A DNA stretch of 64,000 nucleotides, from the NCBI GenBank assembly GCA_011939005.1, contig GCA_011939005.1_4858.1; one strand, given 5' to 3'. Of this stretch, positions 183 to 55,768 are shown one piece after another. The stretch is from a phage. Every line of letters starts with the position of its first letter. The stretch's first letter is position 1. Made by a program: the position numbers and the translations under genes. The notes under the pieces were generated by a model. The model searched no databases. It saw only the letters and a program-made list of their open reading frames with translations, and was not told where the DNA came from.

Positions 183-806
183 ATGGCACAACTGTTGCCT
201 AACACGCCTCAGGTTAACCTTGAGGGGTTGTTCAAGGTTAAGGCACCTTATACGTTGCCAGATAAAGTGATTTACCGTGTTGACGCGGTACAGAACTTTC
301 CGAAACTCCAACGTAATAATATTGACGTTTATAACAAGTATTATAAACCTGTCGGCCTAACTCGTGACGACTATATCAGCGACGCTAATGTCGAAGCCTC
401 GATTGTAACATTAAAGTCGAGGGACGGTCAAGTCTACGAGTTGCCTGATACGTACATTGAGACGTATCCTGGACTGAACGGGTTAAATTATAGACGCAAT
501 GTGGTGGTTATTGACCTGGCATTAATACCCGAATACGTCGATGTCACACTGCTAACGAACGACCTGAAAAGCATTTTAGAACGCGGTTTAGGAATCGAAG
601 CACGTGTGGACATCACGTCGATGGATTACGAAGGGACGGTGACGGAAGAAGAACACTTGCAAATGGAAGCGGTGCGTAAAGCCAAAATCCGTGAGCAGGT
701 TCCTCTGACAGAACAAGTTGCAACACTCACTAAGCAGAATCAAGAACTGCAGGCGTTGAATGATGCGATGTTGAAAATCCTGAAAGATAACGGGTTAACA
801 AATTAA
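183..806 (+). CDS. hypothetical protein (207 aa)
   Basis: ATG preceded by strong RBS aaggaggg; followed by hairpin terminator at 819-857. Confidence 0.7.
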   Translation: MAQLLPNTPQVNLEGLFKVKAPYTLPDKVIYRVDAVQNFPKLQRNNIDVYNKYYKPVGLTRDDYISDANVEASIVTLKSRDGQVYELPDTYIETYPGLNGLNYRRNVVVIDLALIPEYVDVTLLTNDLKSILERGLGIEARVDITSMDYEGTVTEEEHLQMEAVRKAKIREQVPLTEQVATLTKQNQELQALNDAMLKILKDNGLTN

Positions 807-818
807 AGAAAAAAAGAA

Positions 819-857
819 CTACCTACTCCCTTGGGAGTAGGTAGGCTTTTATTTTTT
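819..857. terminator. bidirectional rho-independent terminator
   Basis: Stem cctactccc/gggagtagg flanked by A-run upstream and T-run downstream, between convergent genes. Confidence 0.7.
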
Positions 858-863
858 ATCGCA

Positions 864-1997
864 TTATTTACCGATGATATCACGGACCATTGCTTTGATT
901 GTGGCAGCAGTACGTTTCTTTTTCGGCAGCTTGCGGATTTCTGCGTACAGTTTATCCAGGTTCAGCGTTTTCTGTACCTGCGCAACAATCTGCATTTGCT
1001 CTTCGTCGATCTTCACTTCGACGGTTTGTTCCTGCATTTTGCCCAGTTCCTGAATCACACTGGCAACCGACACCGGATAAGCTGTTGATTTTGGACGTTC
1101 GATACCGAGGGTAACAAAGATTTCGTCGTCAATAAACACATTTTCGATATCAGCCAAGTTTTCCAGAATGATTTCATCGTGGTCTTCATCTTCTGACGCA
1201 TTCGGGTATGGACGTTTGTAGGTGTAATCCCACACGTCATAACCGAGTTTATCTGCGAGTTGTACGAAACCTTCCCAGGTTACTTCGCCGGGGTTGATAG
1301 TCTGACCACGGAAACCAGGGTTGGCCGTAAAGACTTTCACCCAGTCGATGTTCGCGATGGTGCGACACTCTTCCAGCGGCGCGTAGCGATCTCCCACTTC
1401 GTCATTGTCAGGCTCTTCAACATGCACTGCTTCGCAACGCTCGAAAGTGACTGAGTGTGGTTTACCGTCACCGAAGATAACGGAGGCAGCACGCCAGTCT
1501 TCGATAGTCCACTGAACATGAGTCAATTCAATGTAACAATGCCCAACTTTAACACGACCATGTGGGGCACTTACTGGTTTAATCAGCTCACCTGGTTCGA
1601 AGAAGAATTCGTCAGAATGTGCAATGGCATACCAGACACCATCAACACCTTCAACGAGAATAGACCAGTTATAAGGCGCGTGGCAATTTTGGAAAGCTAC
1701 GCCCAGCATACTTCCCCAACGGTCATCTGGCGAATATTTCAGTGGCGGCAGGTTATCAAACTGAAGAGTTTGAGAAGAAAGGCACAACTTATTACGCAGG
1801 TGCGGCAGCGGCAGATAAGCCTCCACATTGTTATCGACCAGCGCATTGTAAAGATCCGGGTTGATAACACCGGTGCCAGTGACGTGTTGTGCAATCAGAG
1901 CTTCTGAATATGCACGAATACCTTCGTAGCTAAGCACATACGCACGGTCACGTACTACACGAGCCATATCTTCGATTACGGAAATTGGAAATTTCAT
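864..1997 (-). CDS. hypothetical protein (377 aa)
   Basis: Long ORF; track start at 2021 is TTG, ATG at 1997 with AAGGA RBS preferred. Confidence 0.7.
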   Translation of the reverse strand: MKFPISVIEDMARVVRDRAYVLSYEGIRAYSEALIAQHVTGTGVINPDLYNALVDNNVEAYLPLPHLRNKLCLSSQTLQFDNLPPLKYSPDDRWGSMLGVAFQNCHAPYNWSILVEGVDGVWYAIAHSDEFFFEPGELIKPVSAPHGRVKVGHCYIELTHVQWTIEDWRAASVIFGDGKPHSVTFERCEAVHVEEPDNDEVGDRYAPLEECRTIANIDWVKVFTANPGFRGQTINPGEVTWEGFVQLADKLGYDVWDYTYKRPYPNASEDEDHDEIILENLADIENVFIDDEIFVTLGIERPKSTAYPVSVASVIQELGKMQEQTVEVKIDEEQMQIVAQVQKTLNLDKLYAEIRKLPKKKRTAATIKAMVRDIIGK

Positions 1998-2057
1998 GTT
2001 AATAGTCCTTATAAAAGTCAATGGTATTTTCAGATGATTAGTTACTGCTGTAAAAAA

Positions 2058-2324
2058 CTAGTTACGGTCGGAATTAAAGACGTGCCAGGTACTACGCCAG
2101 CGAAAGAATCGGGTCATGAAACCACGCACGTGGTAGCCTGAGAACAACATCCAGATGGCAAGAAAGAGTTGCGCCCATGGGGACGTGAGTTCCATCAGAT
2201 GTGCGACAATCGCACCGATTACCAACATTACCGTGGAGAATAGCAAACCGTACATCATCGGAATGTTGTGGCTATAGCGTTTCTCCATCCAGTAGAGAAA
2301 ATTTATTAAACGTTTCACGAGCAC
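2058..2324 (-). CDS. small hydrophobic membrane protein (88 aa, start uncertain)
   Basis: Two hydrophobic segments; GTG at 2324 or ATG at 2288, neither with clear RBS. Confidence 0.4.
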   Translation of the reverse strand: MLVKRLINFLYWMEKRYSHNIPMMYGLLFSTVMLVIGAIVAHLMELTSPWAQLFLAIWMLFSGYHVRGFMTRFFRWRSTWHVFNSDRN

Positions 2325-2332
2325 ACATCCAA

Positions 2333-2370
2333 GAATTAAATAAAAGGCGGTCAGACCCGAAGGTCTGACC
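2333..2370 (-). terminator. rho-independent terminator
   Basis: Hairpin ggtcagacc-cgaa-ggtctgacc followed by T-run on minus strand, downstream of gene 2376..2969. Confidence 0.6.
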
Positions 2371-2375
2371 GTTAA

Positions 2376-2969
2376 TTACGCTTCGGCCTCAAAGAACGGC
2401 TGGTTCGGTACCACTGCATATTCGAGCACGAAAAGATGTTCTGGGGCATCTTCTGCTCGCCACAGTTTGTGACACGTTGCCAGTTTTTCCAGGATGGTCA
2501 ACCAGCTGAGCTGGCAGAAAGCACGGTCGCCGAAGAACAGTTTCTGCAGTGCAATCGACACATCCATATACGCCTGTTTGAAGTCGAGTTCTTTATCGTA
2601 ACCCGCCGACTGTCGCCACGTCAGCACGAAACCTGCTTCGGTTTCGTTAATTGCTGGACGTAAACCACAAATCCACATCAGCGCCAGATTAACGTTCCAG
2701 TCGAATTCGATACCTTCGTCTTCGTCATCACCAAACGCCGCGTTTAACGCATCGTAGAAACCGTGGTTCTCTGCGAACCATTCGCCATACTCAACGTATA
2801 CCGGTGCTTCGACAGCTTCCCCATCGACTTCACCGATAGGACGCTCTACATAGTTCGGGTTGGTTTGAACGTGTTCCGCACCCGCGCGAATTAATTCGTA
2901 GACATCTTTGGCGGTGATTTGTGCGGCTGTTTTAAGACCTGGATACCAGGGGCGTGTTACGAGTGTCAA
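2376..2969 (-). CDS. hypothetical protein (197 aa)
   Basis: ORF with apparent TTG start overlapping stop of upstream gene; no motif recognised. Confidence 0.55.
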   Translation of the reverse strand: MTLVTRPWYPGLKTAAQITAKDVYELIRAGAEHVQTNPNYVERPIGEVDGEAVEAPVYVEYGEWFAENHGFYDALNAAFGDDEDEGIEFDWNVNLALMWICGLRPAINETEAGFVLTWRQSAGYDKELDFKQAYMDVSIALQKLFFGDRAFCQLSWLTILEKLATCHKLWRAEDAPEHLFVLEYAVVPNQPFFEAEA

Positions 2970-3688
2970 AGCAATGCTCCTTTCATGATAGTGTTATTTG
3001 CCAGTAGTGTACCGGCCGCAGGTGATATTTTGGTGTACAGCGTATCCCAGATTTTCTGAAGCTCAGCGACGCGTTGGTCGCGGTCTTCCTTCGCAAAAGC
3101 AAGCTGACGTGTTTCAGCTTTCGGTGGCGTCATTTTCGCACCGTAGAATGCTGCGTCTTTTCGGTAGCTGGCCATCCAGCGTTTCCCGACCGATGATTTC
3201 TTTTTAATCATCGCAACAGCAGCGCTCTCACCGAAGCGGTAGCCTAATGCGATTTCGGCTGTGCTCGGCTTGCGTTTGAGTTGTTTTGTCAGATGATCCT
3301 CGATGTGTTTCATGTAAACAGCAGCAAGCTGTACAGCATATTTCGGTTTATTAAGGTCTGCGTTCTTTGGGATGTTAAGTTGTTTCCCATACAGACGTAT
3401 CATGGAGCGTTTAGTGCCTGTCGTCATTTGGACAACACTACTAGCACTGCTCGATTTATTCTTACCCACGTTTTTATTAAAACGGGATTCGCGGTAAATG
3501 GTGGTCGCAAGCATCCCGGCATGTACACCTTGCTTTTGAGATGCAGAGACGATGAGAGGTTTAATCTCATTGAACTGGTCCTGGATAAGGACGAATTCTT
3601 TTTGGTGTTTGTTACTGGTGGTCTGGTAAGAAGCGTTGCTGTTGAATGTGGTCACTGCTACCAGAAGAAATAAAATGGTGCGAAACAT
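2966..3688 (-). CDS. secreted lytic transglycosylase (SLT domain) with N-terminal signal peptide
   Basis: ATG with GGAGA RBS; hydrophobic N-terminus MFRTILFLLVAVTTF; motif ESRFN...SSASSVVQMTTGT resembling the SLT catalytic-Glu region (ES..N...S.GA.GLMQ...T). Confidence 0.6.
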   Translation of the reverse strand: MFRTILFLLVAVTTFNSNASYQTTSNKHQKEFVLIQDQFNEIKPLIVSASQKQGVHAGMLATTIYRESRFNKNVGKNKSSSASSVVQMTTGTKRSMIRLYGKQLNIPKNADLNKPKYAVQLAAVYMKHIEDHLTKQLKRKPSTAEIALGYRFGESAAVAMIKKKSSVGKRWMASYRKDAAFYGAKMTPPKAETRQLAFAKEDRDQRVAELQKIWDTLYTKISPAAGTLLANNTIMKGALL

Positions 3689-39987: not shown

Positions 39988-40515
39988 TTAAACGAATCCG
40001 TCCAGTTCACCGTTGGTGGTACTCAGGTCAGTTTTAACGATTGGCTGCGTTACAGTATAAACTGCAAGGCTGGCAGGCTGGTATTTAATGTGGCCTTCTT
40101 TCACCTTAACAGTGATGATTTTCTCACCACTGTCGCCGTCCTCGCGTGTAATGGTGAGTTCAGACAATGCAAACGCATCTTCCGTTTTACCGGCAGCAAT
40201 TAGATCTGCGTTGACAAAAGCAAGCACTTCTTCATCGGTATCCCATTCTGCCTGGTCAGCGGTAACTGCTTTCGCACCGATGATGTTCAATGAATCGAGG
40301 CGGGTATAATGCAGCTCTTTCTCGCCAGTAAAGTTAGCGGATTCCGCGGTGGCAGTGATGGTGAGTTTGGAGTTGCGATGGTCTCCAGAATCTGCTGGTG
40401 AATAGTCAGCAACAGCGCCGAATGTAACGTCAGCAGAAGTTAACGGACTAGACAGTCCGCTGTTTGCAGCATTAAACAGCGCAACGAGTTGGTCTTTTGC
40501 AGAGATGACTGCCAT
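39988..40515 (-). CDS. short member of the shared-N-terminal-domain family (175 aa), C-terminus ...TNGELDGFV
   Basis: ATG at 40515 with AAGGAAA RBS; N-terminus aligns with the tandem paralogs further downstream. Confidence 0.6.
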   Translation of the reverse strand: MAVISAKDQLVALFNAANSGLSSPLTSADVTFGAVADYSPADSGDHRNSKLTITATAESANFTGEKELHYTRLDSLNIIGAKAVTADQAEWDTDEEVLAFVNADLIAAGKTEDAFALSELTITREDGDSGEKIITVKVKEGHIKYQPASLAVYTVTQPIVKTDLSTTNGELDGFV

Positions 40516-40639
40516 GGTTGTTTCCTTATAGTAGGTTTGTGGTGCATACCAAATCATTCTAAAAAATACATAGTGGGGTTAATATGACAGTAAAGTTGGC
40601 TGTTAAACGAGAAAGTTTTTACCACTGAAAGGATACCTT

Positions 40640-43416: not shown

Positions 43417-45585
43417 CTATTTCTTTGGCCGCACCCACGGTTTAGGGGCGGATTTGGTATACGGATTACATTCCATCATCTTACCGAGGTAGGCATCGTA
43501 ATACACGAAGCGATCGACATAGAACTTCTCCACCGGTGCACTACTGGTAGCCGATTTCACCCGGTTGCGTTCCACAGCGAGGCTAATCGCCCCGGTAGGT
43601 GCGGGTTTTAGCGTGAACATTACCGCGCGGTTGTAACGCCAAGTGTCGTGCACAATATCAAACTCCGATACACAGTGTGCCATGATACCAAACAATGTGG
43701 TGGCTGGTAAGTTGGCTACAGCATCGCCGTATGGTGTTCCCACCAAACCGCCGGGTATGTTTTGCTTTTTGAACAGCGTACCTGAAATAATCGTACCTAA
43801 GAACTCCACAACTACAGGCTTGGTTGGGTCGGTGACTTTATCTATCCCATCCGCACTGGCCAATCGGTTGGCATCTAAATCTGCGAGGTAGTCGAGGAAC
43901 TCTTGGTACTCGTCGGTAACATTCGGTTTCACCGTTCCGACGGATACCCAGTTGACGATACTTTTATTCCCACCGACAGCTTCGCCTGCCATCCCAGGGC
44001 GAGTCCATGACATCCCGTCTTCACGACCGTAGACATAGACTGGCGAGCCGGTAGCCGGGGTGTTCCATTGCTCGAACGCTGTATATCGTCCCGGCTGGCC
44101 CCAATCCCCACCCGGACCGCCATAGTAGCGACTCTGGTAGCCGGTAAATTGCGCGACGACTAACTGGGTAGCACCGCCTTTGTCACGGGACCCAGCTAAG
44201 CCGTTACGGTTATTGGTGCCGCTGGGCACCGCCGCGCCTGGCCCGAGAGGCGCACCACCAGCTCCACCGATCTTGGTGGTGCTAAACGCATAGTAGTCGC
44301 CCCCACCCCCACCACCGGCGATGGTGCCGTAGTTTTCGATGGTGACTTTGCCACGGAAGGTATCGCTAATGTGGATTGCGTCAGCTCCGTCCGCTGATGT
44401 GTTCGCAGGCATAGAGTAGACCACACCCGAACCACCACGACCAAGAATGGTTCCCCGGTTAACGAAGTTCCAAACCACCTCGCCAATTTGCGGCAATTCG
44501 TCGATAACGAACGTCGGTTTCAGGTTGCTGTCGCGATAAACGAAAGCCCCCGCATCTACGGTCACGTTAACAAACAAACGCCCGCACGCCGCATGGTTGG
44601 TCAACGTTGTGGCCCAGTAGCTGTCCGAAAGTTGCGACGTAGTTGTGTAGTTCAGGTTAAGGGTTTGCTCGTTATCTTGATAGCGTGCTACATTCAACGT
44701 GGCACTGCCCATGACTTTGTACGAACCCTCTACGGGTGCCAATTGCACTTGTCTCGGCCACTCGCCTGCCAGGTTCTCTACAGGAGCAATTTCGTTTACA
44801 TCAAAAACACTCCGAATGCCGAGTGTCTCGATGGCCAGAGCATCGTGCAGGCTACCGGTGAAATCATCCGGGACGTATGTGGTTTTGCCTGCATATGTCT
44901 CGAGTTTGTTACGTGAGAAGAACACATACTTCGTTCCAAACATCCCGCTCCCCGGTCTAGCGGTCAAAGCTACGACGCTGTTATACGCAGAGGTTTGGCC
45001 TATATCCTCCGGGGACATCGGGGCGCTGACATCGACTTTATCAAGATCCACGATCCGTTTGGTTGCATTAGAGTAGAAGTTAATCCACTGCTGCTTATTC
45101 GCAGCCTTTAGCGTGAAAATGATATTGGTAACAGTGTAGACAGTGTTGATATCCACGTCACCGTTTATCACATCTAGCGTTTGGCTGCCGTACCAGATAA
45201 GACTTGTCTGTTTCGCCTGGAACGTGATGCGCGCAGCATTGTTTGTCCAAGTGATGGGCAGGTCTTCAAAGTCGTCGGTTAAAAAGGTAATCCCTAGTAG
45301 AGTGTCTAAATGCGGCAACAGTTCGTGGATGGACGCACAAGTGGGAATGGCATCCAACTTAACCTTGGCGAAATAATCAGCAATATTTTGCTTCGTGACT
45401 TGGGCCGTAATTTGACCGTAACTAGAATACCCCGGACCCCCTGTCAGTGTGACGTCTAGGGTTTTTTCGTCACGATGCGCCACGGACACCAGGCGTACGT
45501 TAGCGGGGTCTACTGCTTTGGCGACCGCGTTTTTACGGTTGAGCGACCGAATCACGGTCGCCACTAAATCGGGAGTGTATGACAT
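43417..45585 (-). CDS. tail fibre-like protein with Gly-rich segment (722 aa)
   Basis: ATG with AAGGTG RBS; N-terminus resembles the family domain; GGGGGG and Gly-rich stretch; C-terminus SAPKPWVRPKK parallels SKTAPVPWYPAL of 45600..46919. Confidence 0.8.
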   Translation of the reverse strand: MSYTPDLVATVIRSLNRKNAVAKAVDPANVRLVSVAHRDEKTLDVTLTGGPGYSSYGQITAQVTKQNIADYFAKVKLDAIPTCASIHELLPHLDTLLGITFLTDDFEDLPITWTNNAARITFQAKQTSLIWYGSQTLDVINGDVDINTVYTVTNIIFTLKAANKQQWINFYSNATKRIVDLDKVDVSAPMSPEDIGQTSAYNSVVALTARPGSGMFGTKYVFFSRNKLETYAGKTTYVPDDFTGSLHDALAIETLGIRSVFDVNEIAPVENLAGEWPRQVQLAPVEGSYKVMGSATLNVARYQDNEQTLNLNYTTTSQLSDSYWATTLTNHAACGRLFVNVTVDAGAFVYRDSNLKPTFVIDELPQIGEVVWNFVNRGTILGRGGSGVVYSMPANTSADGADAIHISDTFRGKVTIENYGTIAGGGGGGDYYAFSTTKIGGAGGAPLGPGAAVPSGTNNRNGLAGSRDKGGATQLVVAQFTGYQSRYYGGPGGDWGQPGRYTAFEQWNTPATGSPVYVYGREDGMSWTRPGMAGEAVGGNKSIVNWVSVGTVKPNVTDEYQEFLDYLADLDANRLASADGIDKVTDPTKPVVVEFLGTIISGTLFKKQNIPGGLVGTPYGDAVANLPATTLFGIMAHCVSEFDIVHDTWRYNRAVMFTLKPAPTGAISLAVERNRVKSATSSAPVEKFYVDRFVYYDAYLGKMMECNPYTKSAPKPWVRPKK

Positions 45586-46965: not shown

Positions 46966-47143
46966 GCTGTTATGGTGAAGTACGCTATCCCTTTAACTCC
47001 AGCTGCTTCGACGTCAGTTTGGATAACCACGCGGCCGTACGCTTTATTAGCGAAATTGAATCAGCGCTGATTCGACCTGCGAGTTCAGGGTTATCCCTTA
47101 CGACTTGTTGGCAGAGCAGTTCCAGTGCGCTATACAATCCCAT
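46966..47143 (-). pseudogene. decayed remnant of a family paralog (N-terminal about 30 codons joined out of frame to C-terminal about 28 codons)
   Basis: Intact RBS and ATG at 47143 encode MGLYSALELLCQQVVRDNPELAGRISADSI (compare MGLYTEPSMELLCQQIVRDNPGLAGKITADSI at 50555); region 46965-47070 is about 80 percent identical to 54051-54155 (3' end of 54050..54877) with a 1-nt deletion. Confidence 0.5.
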
Positions 47144-47154
47144 GAAGTCTCCTG

Positions 47155-49058: not shown

Positions 49059-50555
49059 TTATTGGAATCCATCCAACTCACCGTTAGTATCGCCCAGAGT
49101 AATTTTTGAAGGTTGGGCGATTTGGTCAGTCGTGAGAATAATCGGTCTAATCTTAACGCTAGCCATGCCTGTTACCGCGACGGAATATGCACGTTCATCA
49201 TTGTCCGTCGTGGCAAGCAGAGGACGTGGTGAGTCTGATGACGCTTCCCGTACCCAGGCAGGGGTGGCAGTTTCGGTGTTGTCGGTGTTGAAAACTAACG
49301 GACGTGGATTCGCTGCAGCGGAGGTTTCCGTAATCGGCACCACACGAAGCGATTCATTTTGGTCGATGTCCGTCAGAGTAACCACGGACGGTGCCCATGT
49401 TAGTTCTGCACCTTCGTCAATCAACGGCACAGGTTCATTGGCAACATCAATCATCTCCAAGATTGGCCAAAAGCCAGAAGAGGTGTAGATGTAGGTGTAT
49501 GAACGATAGCTCCCACTGATAGACTGGTAATACGCTTGGTCGGCACCGAACTGGTGTCGTAACCACACGTAATCCAGGAAGTTAGCATCAGTCGTGCTAA
49601 GAGTTCCCCATTCCCCATATACGTTCACCGACCCCAATTTGCTGGTCAGTGACAGGATAGAGGTGATTGACGGCGGTTTACTCCAATCAGGCGCGGCGGC
49701 GTTCTCGGTGTAATACGGGATAGACATTCTGAAATAATGCGTTCCTTCATCATCCCGTTTTACCATGTATTTCAACTGTTCAACATCGACAGGTGTGTAA
49801 GTCGACTTCGGGCGAGGTCCTGCGTCTCCGGAATCAAATATTGCACCCTTGTTGTACAGGTCTGCCCAGGTAACGTTGCAAATCGCACGGGTCGGAACAA
49901 ACACTACCGCCCCATTCAGAAAGAATTTGAGCCACTTGATAGCGTAGCGGTTAGGCCAGTTGGTGCCGTTATAGAGGGCATACACCATTTCATCAGATGT
50001 GAATAACTCTTCCGCGCTTACCAGCCCAAAAAATCCGTATAACTCATTACCGGCCATTAATCCTTTTGGCCCAGGGCCCGACTTCGGATACATCGCAATC
50101 GGTTCGTAAACATAGGTCATCTTGCATGACCCGGTATAGCACAAGGAGTTAGCGTGCGCCGTCAGAGTTACAGTTTCTGGCGTAGCGTATTTCATTAATG
50201 CAACGTTTGGACTGGTGATGTCACTCGCGGTTAAGTTCAACCCGTTCAATTCATTGAACGCCGGTAACGCTTCCGCATGGGTTTGTGCGCTACGTGGAAT
50301 ACTCACCATCTTCGGGCCAGACTTGAACAGACTGGCCAGATTCAACCGGTCGTAATAGACCGTTATTTCCCCAGCAAATCCTTTACCGGGTTTACCTACC
50401 AACGTAATCTGTGTGTTTCGTCCGTTAACGTTTTTCGCAACAGGAACACCCCTGACCCCAATGGAGTCAGCGGTGATTTTTCCTGCTAAACCGGGATTGT
50501 CACGCACAATTTGTTGGCAGAGCAGTTCCATTGAAGGTTCTGTATACAACCCCAT
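49059..50555 (-). CDS. module protein C2 (498 aa), family N-terminal domain, C-terminus ...NGELDGFQ
   Basis: ATG with GGAG RBS; TVYYDRLNL motif; about 27-aa C-terminal repeats. Confidence 0.8.
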   Translation of the reverse strand: MGLYTEPSMELLCQQIVRDNPGLAGKITADSIGVRGVPVAKNVNGRNTQITLVGKPGKGFAGEITVYYDRLNLASLFKSGPKMVSIPRSAQTHAEALPAFNELNGLNLTASDITSPNVALMKYATPETVTLTAHANSLCYTGSCKMTYVYEPIAMYPKSGPGPKGLMAGNELYGFFGLVSAEELFTSDEMVYALYNGTNWPNRYAIKWLKFFLNGAVVFVPTRAICNVTWADLYNKGAIFDSGDAGPRPKSTYTPVDVEQLKYMVKRDDEGTHYFRMSIPYYTENAAAPDWSKPPSITSILSLTSKLGSVNVYGEWGTLSTTDANFLDYVWLRHQFGADQAYYQSISGSYRSYTYIYTSSGFWPILEMIDVANEPVPLIDEGAELTWAPSVVTLTDIDQNESLRVVPITETSAAANPRPLVFNTDNTETATPAWVREASSDSPRPLLATTDNDERAYSVAVTGMASVKIRPIILTTDQIAQPSKITLGDTNGELDGFQ

Positions 50556-50568
50556 GGCTTTTACTCCG

Positions 50569-51492
50569 TTACGGTAAGACTAATTCAAAAGCAAAGAATA
50601 TCGTGGCCGAGTTCCCGACACCTGCGGTGTTACTAATCACCATAGGCACGGTGCCATACGCATAAGCGAATATGTTGTTGCTCCACAAAGGAGCTAATAC
50701 AGCGGCACCTGACTCATTCGGCTGCACAGTCGCGCCTTGTCTTGCAAGTGAGTCAATCGCACCAAGACCGAGGGCTGCGAACTGTGCACCGACAGGATAC
50801 AAACGGCCCATTGTGTTTCGCCATTCACCGTTGTTGTAATCCTGTCCTGAGAGAACAGCGTCGTACGGGACTGCGTAAGGTAATCGGATACGGTACGTAC
50901 GACCATCCTTCGTGACCTTACAATCTTGTTTAGTCGCCGTGGCTCCCTGCGGAACAATACTTCCGACATCATCGGTCCCGTACATCATACCGTACTGATA
51001 CGCCATTTGTACCGAGTTGGTTTTCGAATGCATCGTCGCTGGGAAGAAGACAATTCTCCCACGGAAAATAAACTTGTGCCATTCCTGAGGGTCGTAGACA
51101 AACATGTTTCCCTGCTGTGCAGTCAACATAAGCTTCAGCTCGGCGGTATTAAAGAACTCGGTATTCGGTACTGTACCGAAATAACCTGAAGCCCAGTCAC
51201 CACGCAAAATAGTTTGCGGACCCGGCCCGGTGTCCGGATAGAATCCTTGCGTAATCGGATTGCCGATAAGTCGTTCACTGTCCTTCACAGCAGCTACCCA
51301 ATAACGATAGGTTGTATTCTTCGTCAGAGTATCGATATTATCTACGAACTCTACCGCGTTGCCCGATAAAGTTGCGTGGGGTGTGCCTGGATTGTAAACG
51401 TCGATTGTTGCGTTCCAACCTTCCTTGCGGTAGATTTCAATCGCGGTAAGACCTTTGCTGGCTTGGGACGGCCAGCTTAACCGTATAGTCAT
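50569..51492 (-). CDS. module protein B1 (307 aa)
   Basis: ATG with AAGGGG RBS; paralog of B2. Confidence 0.8.
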   Translation of the reverse strand: MTIRLSWPSQASKGLTAIEIYRKEGWNATIDVYNPGTPHATLSGNAVEFVDNIDTLTKNTTYRYWVAAVKDSERLIGNPITQGFYPDTGPGPQTILRGDWASGYFGTVPNTEFFNTAELKLMLTAQQGNMFVYDPQEWHKFIFRGRIVFFPATMHSKTNSVQMAYQYGMMYGTDDVGSIVPQGATATKQDCKVTKDGRTYRIRLPYAVPYDAVLSGQDYNNGEWRNTMGRLYPVGAQFAALGLGAIDSLARQGATVQPNESGAAVLAPLWSNNIFAYAYGTVPMVISNTAGVGNSATIFFAFELVLP

Positions 51493-51501
51493 GACTGCCC
51501 C

Positions 51502-52500
51502 TTACTCGACCAGTTCAAAGATAGGGTAGTAACGCCCTTTCGTGGTGGGTGATAAATAGTTTATACGCTGAATCGTGGATACGGGTGTTCCACCGGCATT
51601 GTTAAAAATGCCACGATGGACCACACGGTCTTCCGCGGTGTCGTGTTCCATACAGAGAACTCCGGCACCGAAATACGTTGCCGAGGTTCCCAAATTAGCC
51701 TGCCCCAGATAAGTATAACTGTTCGCTGCCCAGTTAGCCCAACGCTGTTTCCTCGGCACCTCGTTAACCATCGTGTAAAGTAAATCGTTATACTCACACG
51801 GGTTGGTTAGAGAAGCGATTTCATCGTGGGTTTTCCCATTGTAGTCAGCTACGAAAGGATACGCAGGAGACTCGCTAGACGTCGTCAGGCCGCGAGGAAG
51901 ACGCATAATGTACGTATCCCCTTTGTGGACTATCTTAGCGTCTTGTGGAGTGGCCGGTAGCGTTCCATGGCCGTTCTCTGGGCCAGCATCGCCCGTACCA
52001 TAGACTAAACCAGCTTGATAGAGGGAAGCCCAGTCCACAGGCGTATTCGGGAACTGCGACGTGTTAGATAGCATGTAATAGATCTTCCCGTTTCGGGTAA
52101 ATTTATACAACGCCACACGATCGGTTAACAGGTTAGGGAACATCGCCAAAAATGCAGGTGGCATTTGCGACGGAAGCCACTGTTCGTCGTAAGGAACCTC
52201 ACCCATAAACCCTAAACGGTCGTTGCCGTTTAGAATAGTCATTGGGCCTATCCCGCGTTTTACCTCAATGGTATATTTCTGGCTAGACGACGCTACTGTT
52301 TTACCGTTGGCGGTTACCGTCAGAAGGTAATAATAGGTTGCGCCTGGTGTGGCGGTGGTATCACGCCATTCTGTCTCGCCGTTTGAGAGCGTTGCAATCG
52401 GTTCAGGCAAAGCGCTTGGTGTGATATCTTTAACATCACGGTAGATTTTTACTACCGTAGAGATTACGTTTGGATTTTTCCAACGCAAAGTAAAAGACAT
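51502..52500 (-). CDS. module protein A1 (332 aa)
   Basis: ATG with AGAGGTA RBS; paralog of A2. Confidence 0.8.
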   Translation of the reverse strand: MSFTLRWKNPNVISTVVKIYRDVKDITPSALPEPIATLSNGETEWRDTTATPGATYYYLLTVTANGKTVASSSQKYTIEVKRGIGPMTILNGNDRLGFMGEVPYDEQWLPSQMPPAFLAMFPNLLTDRVALYKFTRNGKIYYMLSNTSQFPNTPVDWASLYQAGLVYGTGDAGPENGHGTLPATPQDAKIVHKGDTYIMRLPRGLTTSSESPAYPFVADYNGKTHDEIASLTNPCEYNDLLYTMVNEVPRKQRWANWAANSYTYLGQANLGTSATYFGAGVLCMEHDTAEDRVVHRGIFNNAGGTPVSTIQRINYLSPTTKGRYYPIFELVE

Positions 52501-52511
52501 AGATGATACCT

Positions 52512-54002
52512 CTACTTAAAGCCGTCCAGTTCACCGTTAAGAGACGTTAACGTTGTCTTGTCAGGGGGCGTATACATTTCAGCGGTAGCCGCAATAGGTT
52601 GAAAATCGACAGTCTTCGGCAGCATTAATGCAGGCGGATGCAGTGCGAAACTGTTTTCTGAAGTAACGGCCACAGGTTGAAAATCGACAGTCTTCGGCAG
52701 CATTAATGCAGGCGGATGCAGTGCGAAACTGTTTTCTGAAGTAACAACTACCGGTTCGAAATCGGTAGTATCTGGATTACCGAGCACCAACGGCTTGAGA
52801 CTAAACGTGTTTTCTGCGGACACGCTGCACGGTTGGAGGCTGTAATCTACCGCGCCGTGGATATCTTCTAAGCCCAAGGTAACCGTGGACTTATCCACCA
52901 ACTCCAGCACCGGGAACCAGTAGTAGTTGCCCGCACTCGATGATTTTTCTAAGTTTGTCCAACTTGCTCCAGACAACGTCGCCATGCGATGATTGGCGAC
53001 GTTGGTGTTCAGTGTATCTTTCAATAAACAGAACAGCGTCCAGTAACTGTTAATCGGTTTGTCCCACGTTCCATTATACAGAAAGTTGAACATCTCAAAC
53101 TCACTACCTGCTAACTCAGCGGCAGTTGGGGTGCCGCTGACGTATGGGTCTTTCCCGGCACTAGGTAGACGAACGCGGAAGTAAAACCTTTTGTTGTCTG
53201 CGCCTGTAAAGCTAATGATGCGTCCCTGGTTAACGGGCGTCGCCGCAGGGTATTTACCATTATCATCTGTTCCGTAAACGAGTCCGTTTGTATATAACGT
53301 ATTCCAGGAGATGGAGCTAGCGACAGGACTGATCGGAAGGTAAATAACCCTACCCTGGTAAAAGAACTTGTACCAACCTTCGGCACCAGAATGTACCGGT
53401 GGTAACGCACCGGCCGATATAGTGGCATTAAGAAGTTGAGAGTGTGTAAACAACTCTGCAATTGTGGTTGTTCCGAAATAACCCGCGATAGTGTTACCTT
53501 GCAGCAACGTTTTAGGGCCAGGTCCAGAATCGGGGTAAATTGCACCGCTCGGGACGGTATAACGTATCGTTAAGCTGCCTATAAACGCAGGGCAATTACC
53601 TGAGATATTTAATTTCAACGTCTGCGGCGAAGCGCTCGGTTTAGGTAAACTTGCGTCAGGTGACTGCAAATCAGAAGCAACTAATGTAAGCCCCAATGCG
53701 TCGTTTATTGCAGGTAGCGCGTCTCGTACCGTTAAGACTGTATCTTTGATAGCCACAGTCGGCACAAAATTAAATAAAGTGGCCAGGTTAATCCGGTCGT
53801 AGTACACGGTAACATTACCTTGTACACCTGTCCCTGGATACCCGGTGAAAACAGCTTTGGTGTTACGTTGGTTTAACGTAACTGAAGTTGGGCCGCTGGT
53901 TAAAGCAGCGATAGCCGGTGTCAGCTTAACAACTAAATCAGGGTTATCCCGATTGACTTGGTCGTATACAAGCAGTGCCGACTCCTTCGAGTAAAATAGC
54001 AT
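52512..54002 (-). CDS. module protein C1 (496 aa), C-terminus ...NGELDGFK, contains 78-bp tandem duplication
   Basis: ATG with GGAG RBS; family N-terminus MLFYSKESALLVYDQVNRDNP; TVYYDRINL. Confidence 0.8.
   Translation of the reverse strand: MLFYSKESALLVYDQVNRDNPDLVVKLTPAIAALTSGPTSVTLNQRNTKAVFTGYPGTGVQGNVTVYYDRINLATLFNFVPTVAIKDTVLTVRDALPAINDALGLTLVASDLQSPDASLPKPSASPQTLKLNISGNCPAFIGSLTIRYTVPSGAIYPDSGPGPKTLLQGNTIAGYFGTTTIAELFTHSQLLNATISAGALPPVHSGAEGWYKFFYQGRVIYLPISPVASSISWNTLYTNGLVYGTDDNGKYPAATPVNQGRIISFTGADNKRFYFRVRLPSAGKDPYVSGTPTAAELAGSEFEMFNFLYNGTWDKPINSYWTLFCLLKDTLNTNVANHRMATLSGASWTNLEKSSSAGNYYWFPVLELVDKSTVTLGLEDIHGAVDYSLQPCSVSAENTFSLKPLVLGNPDTTDFEPVVVTSENSFALHPPALMLPKTVDFQPVAVTSENSFALHPPALMLPKTVDFQPIAATAEMYTPPDKTTLTSLNGELDGFK
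52597..52752 (-). repeat. near-identical in-frame tandem duplication (2 x 78 bp) inside CDS 52512..54002
   Basis: ggttgaaaatcgacagtcttcggcagcattaatgcaggcggatgcagtgcgaaactgttttctgaagtaac occurs twice with period 78 bp; encodes TSENSFALHPPALMLPKTVDFQPVAV twice. Confidence 0.8.
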
Positions 54003-54017
54003 AGGGACTCCGCATCG

Positions 54018-54046
54018 CCAAAAGAGGGGGCTCCGAAGAGCCCCTA
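54018..54046 (-). terminator. rho-independent terminator
   Basis: Hairpin ggggctc-cgaa-gagcccc followed by short T-run on minus strand. Confidence 0.5.
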
Positions 54047-54049
54047 CAC

Positions 54050-54877
54050 TTAGCTGTTATAGTGGTAGTACGCCACGCCTTTCACGCCTTCCTCATCGAT
54101 GCCCGTTTGGACAACCACGCGGTCGTACGATTTGTTAGCGAACTGAGCGGTGGATGTCGGCACATCCTGAACGGTGTTGCTGTTCAGTGGCCCCGCGTAG
54201 TTCGGAATACCCAGGTCATCCAACACCTTACGCAATCCAGCCCACTGCGGTAGGCCAGAAGCATCTACTGTCAGTAGGTTTTTATACGCGGTAAAGTCAA
54301 TACCATACGTCAACAAATCAATACACTTCTTACCGAGAGACGGTGAAATAGGCTCTTGAATCGCATTCAAGACATCCGATTTCACCGAAGTGTCTAGTAC
54401 CGGTAAACCACGGTTATAACGCAACGTCGCAGAACCGATATAAGCCGGAGATGTCGATAGCGCTACGATGTTCTGTGTATTGGTGTAATTTGGGGTATTG
54501 GGACCCGCCAGTGGGAGGTTATAGATATCGATTGCAGAGAAGTTTACTCCGTAAGTATCCAAGAGCACCGAAAAGGCTGAATGGAGGTTGGGCGCGTCAA
54601 ACGTGACGAACTGCGCCTGGACAGAAGGACCCCACGGCAATAACCGCGCTAAGTTCACACGGTCGTAGTAAACGGTGATTGCGTCTCGAAATCCGGAACC
54701 CTGAATACCGCGCAAGCGTGCCGACGTATTGCGGTTGTTGGAAGCTGCATTAACGGGAACCTGTGTCACTTTCTCCACGTAGCAGTTTGCCGGCGACGCT
54801 TTAATAGGTAGGTTTGGGTTATCCCGGTTAATGAGGTCAAAGACCAACTCGTTTGACGGCTTAGCATAGTTGATCAT
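54050..54877 (-). CDS. family paralog P7 (275 aa)
   Basis: ATG at 54877 with GAGGTA RBS; N-terminus MINYAKPSNELVFDLINRDNP; TVYYDRVNL. Confidence 0.75.
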   Translation of the reverse strand: MINYAKPSNELVFDLINRDNPNLPIKASPANCYVEKVTQVPVNAASNNRNTSARLRGIQGSGFRDAITVYYDRVNLARLLPWGPSVQAQFVTFDAPNLHSAFSVLLDTYGVNFSAIDIYNLPLAGPNTPNYTNTQNIVALSTSPAYIGSATLRYNRGLPVLDTSVKSDVLNAIQEPISPSLGKKCIDLLTYGIDFTAYKNLLTVDASGLPQWAGLRKVLDDLGIPNYAGPLNSNTVQDVPTSTAQFANKSYDRVVVQTGIDEEGVKGVAYYHYNS

Positions 54878-54880
54878 CAA

Positions 54881-55768
54881 TTATACCTCGCTTGGATCGT
54901 CCAGATCGTTGAACTGGAGATACAACGTTCCGACGATGGTGGTACAGGTAACAGGCAGTTTCAACGCCAGCACATACTTGTACTTCGCGTTTGTCGGCAT
55001 TGCAACAGGGTCATTCAGACCAACACTGATAACCTCCGCGCCCGCCAAACCGTAGGAAGCGGAAGTGGTCGCTACCCATGCAGTACCCGTGATATCTTTC
55101 AGCAGGTTAACCATATCCGTTAACGGCTGTCCGGACAGAATACCCGGCTTGTATGCCAGCAGAGCATCTCGGTACTTAGTGAAGTTGTACGGGTAGGAAT
55201 AAACCTCTGCAATGACCGCAGTAACATTTTCGGAACCCATCTGACCGTTCGGGTATTTCAGACCGGTCAGGACGTTAGTGGTGACTGCAGAGACTAACGA
55301 CTCATCACCTTTCACGACTTTAAATGTCGCCTGTCCAACCCAACCGATAGACTCTGGATGTGCAACAACACGCACAGTACCTTCGGTCTTATCACCGTTC
55401 CATTCGATATCTGCGTCCTGCAGGTCAGCTTCTTCCAGAACAAAACCGTAACGTTGGTTCAGTCCAGGAATGGCCGCATACAAGGTTTCGTTGGATGGGC
55501 CGATCGCCAACGTGTCACCGATCAGCACTAACAAGTCTTCGACTTTCATGCGGTTGTAGAAGACATTTTTCTTACCCGACCAGGTAGAGCCCGTTACCCC
55601 ATCTGCCGTAATTTTAATTTGCGTGTTACGGTTAGTCAGCGTTTCCTTCTCCGTACCACGGATGTCCTTTGGCGAGGACCAGATGATGTCAGTCATCTTA
55701 ACAGCAAGCGAGTTCTGTGCGTTCACTGCTGCCAACAGGACGTCTTTAGAAGGTTGATAAATAGCCAT
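54881..55768 (-). CDS. family paralog P6 (295 aa)
   Basis: ATG with AGGAAT RBS; conserved N-terminal domain, divergent C-terminus. Confidence 0.75.
   Translation of the reverse strand: MAIYQPSKDVLLAAVNAQNSLAVKMTDIIWSSPKDIRGTEKETLTNRNTQIKITADGVTGSTWSGKKNVFYNRMKVEDLLVLIGDTLAIGPSNETLYAAIPGLNQRYGFVLEEADLQDADIEWNGDKTEGTVRVVAHPESIGWVGQATFKVVKGDESLVSAVTTNVLTGLKYPNGQMGSENVTAVIAEVYSYPYNFTKYRDALLAYKPGILSGQPLTDMVNLLKDITGTAWVATTSASYGLAGAEVISVGLNDPVAMPTNAKYKYVLALKLPVTCTTIVGTLYLQFNDLDDPSEV

Follow-up and report, generated by a model that had tools for sequence, protein, structure and literature searches.

We analysed a stretch of phage DNA of 64,000 nucleotides (nt; NCBI GenBank assembly GCA_011939005.1, contig GCA_011939005.1_4858.1; hereafter the window) and focus on a minus-strand gene at 52512..54002, whose product of 496 amino acids (aa) ends in a tail of tandem repeats. 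A 78-bp unit of this tail is duplicated in frame, and the gene carries three full repeat units where nearly all of its relatives carry two. The duplication is a rare heritable allele. We think it probable that it had a single origin, that its copies have been kept alike by gene conversion and that the repeats serve as a tether to a terminal docking peptide. By sequence similarity, the window is assigned to an SPN3US-like jumbo phage of Salmonella/E. coli (Seoulvirus, Chimalliviridae); no database record is identical to it. The gene shares 97.5% nucleotide identity and a conserved gene order with SPN3US and corresponds to SPN3US gp145 (YP_009153439.1), an assignment made from gene order and protein masses (50.8 kDa; PMC5694885 Table S1).

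The duplicated unit, its distribution and its history

Tandem Repeats Finder, run at the locus, reports a perfect period of 78 nt over 52596-52745 (1.9 copies, 100% matches) within an array that reaches 52764 at 93% identity (2.2 copies), and a second repeat search recovered the same pair. A repeat of 78 nt of this kind cannot arise by chance. The array lies in frame within the open reading frame (ORF), and the in-frame 78-bp tandem duplication at the C-terminus of a paralogous-family member, as described in the original prediction, is thus genuine. It had been described as one 26-aa peptide encoded twice, at 52597-52752. The array is the same, but these coordinates differ in phase from the codons, and the two copies (U2 and U3, Table 1) are near-identical rather than exact: they share 24/26 aa and 72/78 nt, with the mismatch confined to the last three codons (VAV vs IAA), so that U2 ends in …QPVAV and U3 in …QPIAA. 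A degenerate third copy ahead of the pair and a conserved segment behind it had been noticed correctly; the former is U1, identical to U2 at 13/26 aa, and the latter is the terminal segment with its NGELDGF motif. The 26-residue units follow the consensus L-x-P-x-x-x-G-x-P-K-T-V-D-F-x-P-I. When one unit is removed from the tail, self-alignment at shift 26 remains significant (score 82, reached by 0/500 shuffles), and the gp145-type tail is an ancient 26-residue repeat array. A non-coding role of the DNA repeat was dropped, since a scan for promoters and terminators around it found sites no more numerous than in shuffled sequence.

In the following, a "single-copy" allele has two full repeat units and the window allele three. 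The gene matches 22 cleanly assembled full-length Seoulvirus records at 96.6-98.0% nt identity, with the same neighbouring genes, and the extra record SPLA3 at 88.8%. Judged by match span, the gene is shorter in 21 of the 22, measuring 1413 bp in 20 of them and 1411 bp in SaP7, vs 1491 bp. Several SPFM phage records (LR5359xx) were left out of the count; split ORFs and matches in 19-23 pieces suggest that their assemblies are rich in indels. Among 14 fetched loci aligned directly, 13 have two units and only JN03 has three, and all 15 single-copy Seoulvirus DNA alleles have two units. The single-copy state was also found at the three loci recovered by metagenome and IMG/VR scans with the unit core and in 12 more proteins from the 295-member 90% cluster, of which eleven have 470 aa and the last, truncated by a frameshift, has 459 aa. 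All 29 gp145-type orthologs in our alignment (456-478 aa, down to 38% identity, from Erwinia and related phages) have exactly two full units. The three-unit form thus accounts for about 2 of 37 distinct sequences, the window and JN03, with two units in about 35 other Seoulvirus sequences and no third state seen. Hence unit count is not invariant, and the predicted difference in copy number between isolates is borne out; the accompanying idea of a slippage-prone, hypervariable locus is not, given only two states, the longer of them rare. By these comparisons, the two-unit state is ancestral and near-universal, and the three-unit form is derived, rare and heritable. A search for the duplication junction in IMG/VR returned 0 matches, as did one for the unit core in GTDB genomes, and the gene had no match among complete E. 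coli genomes. An association with the host was rejected, because two units occur in EC001 and Lh1B, both E. coli phages, and three in JN03, a phage of Salmonella.

JN03 carries the same 496-aa three-unit allele (QNI20845.1), although it differs from the window by ~2.5% across the gene. U2 ends at the same junction codons in both, GTG GCC GTT (shared junction sequence GTGGCCGTT). This junction is specific to the three-unit allele, and the 78-nt gap against all single-copy alleles falls at U2. Both copies in both genomes also have four synonymous states (GCA, ACT, GAT and TTT), a full set that occurs in no single-copy allele: 14/15 have none of the four and SPLA3 has GAT only. The shared non-templated junction argues for a single origin of the duplication, and independent duplications in the window and JN03 were rejected on the same ground. 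Since the junction and the diagnostic bases are common to genomes that otherwise differ, the duplication appears to predate the split of the window and JN03 alleles, contrary to the earlier claim that near-identity implies a recent event.

In JN03, each copy carries two private changes (CCC and CCA), and there are also a change from TCA to GCG at the start of the downstream copy (TAENS) and a different 3' end (…PPDNVSLTTLNDELDGFK), which together suggest recombination and homogenization within each genome. The copies are more alike within a genome than across genomes, as gene conversion would produce. The identity between copies thus seems better explained by gene conversion than by recency, and the perfect copy identity in the window is not good evidence for a very recent event. 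Compared with 14 relatives, window 51012-55500 is strongly mosaic, its nearest relative switching every few hundred bases; downstream of the repeat, 150 nt match SPN3US exactly and differ from JN03 at 14 positions, and for the repeat segment itself the nearest sequences are those of JN03 and SPLA3. This pattern indicates frequent recombination among Seoulviruses in the region. The duplication would then have arisen in a single event, through slippage or unequal recombination where unit boundaries share short homology; the three-unit allele could have moved between genomes through the frequent regional recombination, and gene conversion would have kept both copies nearly identical. As a separate observation, SPLA3 is highly diverged over 52962-53560 and 54161-55200 and near-identical elsewhere.

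Table 1. Positions of the repeat units, protein domains and related genes in the window.
Feature	Position	Strand	Remarks
Gene for 496-aa virion protein, SPN3US gp145 ortholog (RefSeq ACQ60_gp121, 470 aa)	52512..54002	-	ORF; "paralog family B" / DUF7941 family
N-terminal DUF7941 domain	53553..54002	-	aa 1-150
Central globular domain, candidate C-type-lectin / FGE-like fold	52875..53549	-	aa 152-376; common to both downstream cassette genes
U0, partial, very degenerate first unit	52821..52898	-	aa 369-394, ...AVDYSLQPCSV; end aligns with the end of U1 at shift 26 (self-alignment)
U1, old diverged unit, SAENTFSLKPLVLGNPDTTDFEPVVV	52743..52820	-	aa 395-420; found in every ortholog
U2, TSENSFALHPPALMLPKTVDFQPVAV	52665..52742	-	aa 421-446; last codons are the junction GTG GCC GTT (52665-52673)
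U3, TSENSFALHPPALMLPKTVDFQPIAA	52587..52664	-	aa 447-472
Perfectly periodic 150-nt stretch, period 78	52596..52745	.	72 nt duplicated without mismatch; Tandem Repeats Finder score 300
Terminal segment, TAEMYTPPDKTTLTSLNGELDGFK	52515..52586	-	Conserved C-terminal motif K-T-x-L-x-x-x-N-G-E-L-D-G-F
Two downstream cassette genes, 332 aa and 307 aa, gp146/gp147 orthologs	50569..52500	-	Same central domain; without DUF7941
Paralog tail (gp148 ortholog)	49062..49427	-	Old 26-aa repeats …PRPLVFNTDN… / …PRPLLATTDN… / …IRPIILTTDQ…, terminal NGELDGFQ
Short DUF7941 protein, likely SPN3US gp160 ortholog	39988..40557	-	176-189 aa, probably 176 from an internal Met; N-terminal domain, then directly …KTDLSTTNGELDGFV

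Protein architecture, paralog tails and the terminal peptide

The 496-aa protein matches phrog_3589 (E 1.5e-174), and a sequence search against PDB chains gave no match. SPN3US gp145 occupies the same position among the DUF7941 genes, has the same three-part architecture and was detected in virions by mass spectrometry; it has 470 aa and two full units, compared with 496 aa and three units in the window. At 50.8 kDa it reaches 0.91 spectral counts per kDa (SC/M), compared with 0.93 for the 12-copy portal protein (PMC5694885), and by orthology the window gene product would likewise be a low-copy virion protein. "Paralog family B" was defined as gps 83, 138-154, 161 and 237, and the tables also mark gp160 as B (PMC5694885). 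Two NCBI accessions, from assemblies of bacterial isolates, cover the exact 496-aa protein, deposited as an E. coli "hypothetical protein" on a 241-kb contig. Sequencing of bacterial isolates frequently yields genomes of SPN3US-like jumbo phages, through a carrier state, pseudolysogeny or contamination.

The Pfam match to DUF7941 (PF25613) at aa 1-150 scores 110.6 bits (cut-off 27) and covers profile positions 1-153 of 276 only. The alignment ends at residue 150, so that the DUF7941 linker and C-terminal globular domain are without a match and aa 152-376 are another, putatively lectin-like domain. Goslar gp86, gp92 and gp161 are likewise DUF7941 members with the N-terminal domain only and other domains attached. 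In a fold search, the N-terminal domain of phiKZ gp127 is the best match of the predicted N-terminal domain, and C-type-lectin/FGE-like matches of the model rank after it. The AlphaFold2 monomer model, built with 36 homologs, is confident for aa 1-379, and aa 380-496, which cover all repeats, have a predicted local distance difference test score (pLDDT) below 50. The proline-rich tail of ~120 residues is thus predicted to be disordered in the monomer. Among the 29 gp145-type orthologs, column conservation is 0.53-0.66 in the tail vs 0.60-0.65 in the folded domains and highest in the terminal segment (mean 0.66), suggesting that the tail is under constraint.

Similar tails occur in paralogs. 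Older, diverged repeats of like length had been proposed for gene 49059..50555, and this is confirmed: its tail has a best off-diagonal BLOSUM62 score of 72 at shift 26 (shuffles: mean 24.5, maximum 45; 0/500 reach the score). Its unit has the same 26-aa period as the gp145-type tail and a different sequence. gp148, gp151 and an extra paralog in JN03 each have their own, differing internal repeats ahead of the same terminal motif, which makes tail duplication a recurrent theme of the family. The JN03 paralog, of 504 aa (JN03 locus 1631-3145), has the internal repeat …VTVTDIGWAQELRTP… / …VVTDIGWHQPNRTP…, followed by …CNGELLGFK, and appears to represent another independent tail duplication in the DUF7941 cassette family.

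The peptide K-T-x-L-S-x-x-N-G-E-L-D-G-F closes three otherwise different proteins of the window, namely those of 52512..54002 (52518-52538), 49059..50555 (49065-49085) and 39988..40557. The last of these is probably the ortholog of the very abundant gp160. A KTDLSxTxGELxGF peptide is almost invariant in gp160-type orthologs of several genera (Salmonella, Erwinia and Cronobacter phages). In hhalign, the whole gp160-type protein aligns with full-length DUF7941 paralogs (probability 94.8%, E 5e-8), its tail falling on the linker region in low-confidence columns; a homology between the NGELDGF peptide and the DUF7941 linker is a lead only. In Machina/Caitlin-type Erwinia phages, the orthologs have a natural end …YTPPES, with the next gene 12 nt away. 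In P0051 (two NCBI accessions) and in SaP7, the terminal NGELDGF is lost to a frameshift at or near a C5 run (~52540-52552, ACGCCCCCTGAC).

Seven full-length DUF7941 paralogs lie directly upstream of the gene. Together with the two downstream genes it forms a three-gene cassette, of which the window has two and which is also conserved in Erwinia phage Caitlin. By eye, the gp146/gp147 orthologs appear to have an FN3-like N-terminus. The window is without the third SPN3US cassette, gp151-153 (about 3.35 kb; SPN3US locus 191-3536), and a remnant of gp151, its first ~30 codons (MGLYSALELLCQQVVRDNPELAGRISADSI…), at 47054-47149 on the minus strand marks the deletion scar. By match span, EC001 has the same shorter layout as the window; JN03 has additional, different cassette genes.

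A putative tether and the alternatives to it

That the DUF7941 family forms host-recognition filaments in chimalliviruses is a very recent proposal, and the location of the family is disputed between head and peripheral baseplate. In Goslar, DUF7941 proteins rank with the most abundant proteins of the virion, gp22 assembles into filaments when purified and some members have host-recognition domains; filaments are modeled head-to-tail, with a flexible segment docking on the N-terminal domain in the next protomer (Goslar preprint, 2026). The phiKZ atlas shows the N-terminal domain of gp127 where the gp139 band ends, within every lobe of the outer peripheral baseplate (PMC13250141). A neighbouring 722-aa protein of the window (43417-45585, minus strand) has a T-even-type GP38 tail-fibre adhesin domain (PF05268; E 7e-18, 65.7 bits vs a cut-off of 25) in addition to its DUF7941 N-terminal domain, and this pairing supports a host-recognition role of the DUF7941 array. 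We propose that the terminal peptide docks the gp145-type protein onto a partner, most likely the N-terminal domain of another DUF7941 protein, and that the repeats might act as a tether between the lectin-like body and this peptide. With the extra unit, the tether would gain 26 residues, or as much as about 9 nm if extended, and one more conserved PKTVDFQP motif. A modular tail could tolerate such an insertion, and the phenotypic effect is probably small, perhaps an altered reach or flexibility of the host-recognition appendage.

Several points weigh against this reading. Docking by the terminal peptide and tethering by the repeats are both inferred. The authors of the SPN3US study place the family in the head because it is present in a tailless mutant (PMC5694885), and this assignment is at odds with the baseplate-filament model. 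A low pLDDT for a monomer would not separate disorder from order adopted only in an oligomer, e.g., in a fibre shaft, and the repeats are conserved like folded domains, beyond the need of a pure spacer. Compared by profile with full-length DUF7941 paralogs, the 32-residue tail by itself gives E 0.5-0.7, which is not significant, and falls away from the linker. The terminal motif may also be dispensable, since some Erwinia-phage orthologs end in …YTPPES and go without it. As to the history of the allele, neither simple join of the flanking sequences reproduces GTGGCCGTT, the mismatch being 3-4 of 9 bases, and no observed allele yields the junction by a one-step duplication; a one-step origin, from a prefix of the downstream flank and a suffix of the upstream flank or the reverse, was rejected for this mismatch.

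Instead of spacing the terminal peptide, the units themselves might bind. Each 26-residue unit could be a docking site, either one per cassette partner (gp146 and gp147) or for a DUF7941 N-terminal domain, and a third unit would then hold one more subunit and change the composition or branching of the appendage. The PKT(V/I)DFxP(I/V) core is nearly invariant, and the units are conserved like folded domains yet predicted to be disordered, a combination typical of motifs that become folded when they bind. Exactly two full units in every ortholog match exactly two partner genes in the conserved cassette, which is suggestive, and gp145, gp146 and gp147 are of similar abundance in SPN3US virions (0.91, 0.84 and 0.50 SC/M; PMC5694885 Table S1). 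However, unit counts differ among the paralog tails, gp148 and gp151 having about 3-4 for the same two partner genes, and an extra site identical to U3 would, if the interaction exists, recruit a second copy of one partner, which has no support. We consider a change in valency unlikely, and it is distinctly unlikely that the units are individual docking peptides for gp146/gp147 or DUF7941 N-terminal domains rather than a spacer. If they were, repeat number would set the number of lectin-like subunits per gp145 or the branching of DUF7941 filaments, and tail duplication would offer evolution a simple way to tune the valency of a jumbo phage's host-recognition appendage.

It is improbable that the repeats form an ordered oligomeric beta-structure in the virion, a fibre shaft to which the extra unit would add one rigid module of fixed length. 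The regular 26-residue period, the conserved Pro and Gly residues and the alternating hydrophobic positions are in line with such a shaft, which a monomer AlphaFold2 model would usually give low pLDDT, and the family is implicated in filaments. Yet there are only 3-5 units, the repeat sequences are unrelated between paralogs, nothing points to a gp145 homo-oligomer and the tail has no fold match. The extra unit could also be effectively neutral.

Fresh slippage at a hypermutable, contingency-like repeat would make the copy identity a sign of very recent duplication. The 72 nt without a mismatch between the window copies and the variation in copy number between isolates would fit, but a locus of this kind is very improbable here: ~37 distinct sequences show two states, the long one only twice, and the window and JN03 share the non-templated junction and the four diagnostic bases while differing elsewhere. 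Neither a contraction product nor a single-copy allele with all four diagnostic bases was seen, SPLA3 having one. An assembly artefact that expanded a single unit, or misassembly as raised originally, is barely credible, even if a 156-bp array of about short-read length could in principle be mis-resolved, because the copies differ at the junction, the reading frame is kept, the identical protein stands under two NCBI accessions and the separately assembled JN03 has the same layout with its own substitutions.

As a length polymorphism the duplication is ordinary, and its allele, though new, belongs to a known type of variation. Its wider interest lies in the tails of the DUF7941 "cassette head" proteins, which emerge as modular, repeatedly remodelled by tandem duplication and conserved like folded domains, with an NGELDGF peptide shared with a gp160-type protein. 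Natural alleles with two and three units, in phages that are otherwise near-identical, are a ready-made test of the role of the tail.

Comparison with known systems

The closest parallels to the proposed tether are the filament proteins gp22/gp23 of Goslar and gp126/gp127 of phiKZ, in which, as in the window protein, an N-terminal domain is followed by a flexible segment. In the window protein, however, the DUF7941 C-terminal domain is replaced by a putative lectin-like domain and a repeat tail. The 26-residue repeats are absent from the description of the Goslar and phiKZ filament proteins, and docking through NGELDGF is suggested here for the window protein.

Repeat number sets the length of viral appendages in the adenovirus fibre shaft and in the collagen-like receptor-binding proteins of Streptococcus thermophilus phages, where it changes through slippage or recombination. 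Those repeats form ordered oligomeric shafts with documented effects on receptor use, whereas the window tail is known from its sequence and a monomer model. At bacterial contingency loci, near-identical in-frame coding repeats expand and contract by recombination. The gp145-type tail differs from these in showing no sign of high-frequency switching: it has two states, one of them rare, and a junction that is stable across genomes.

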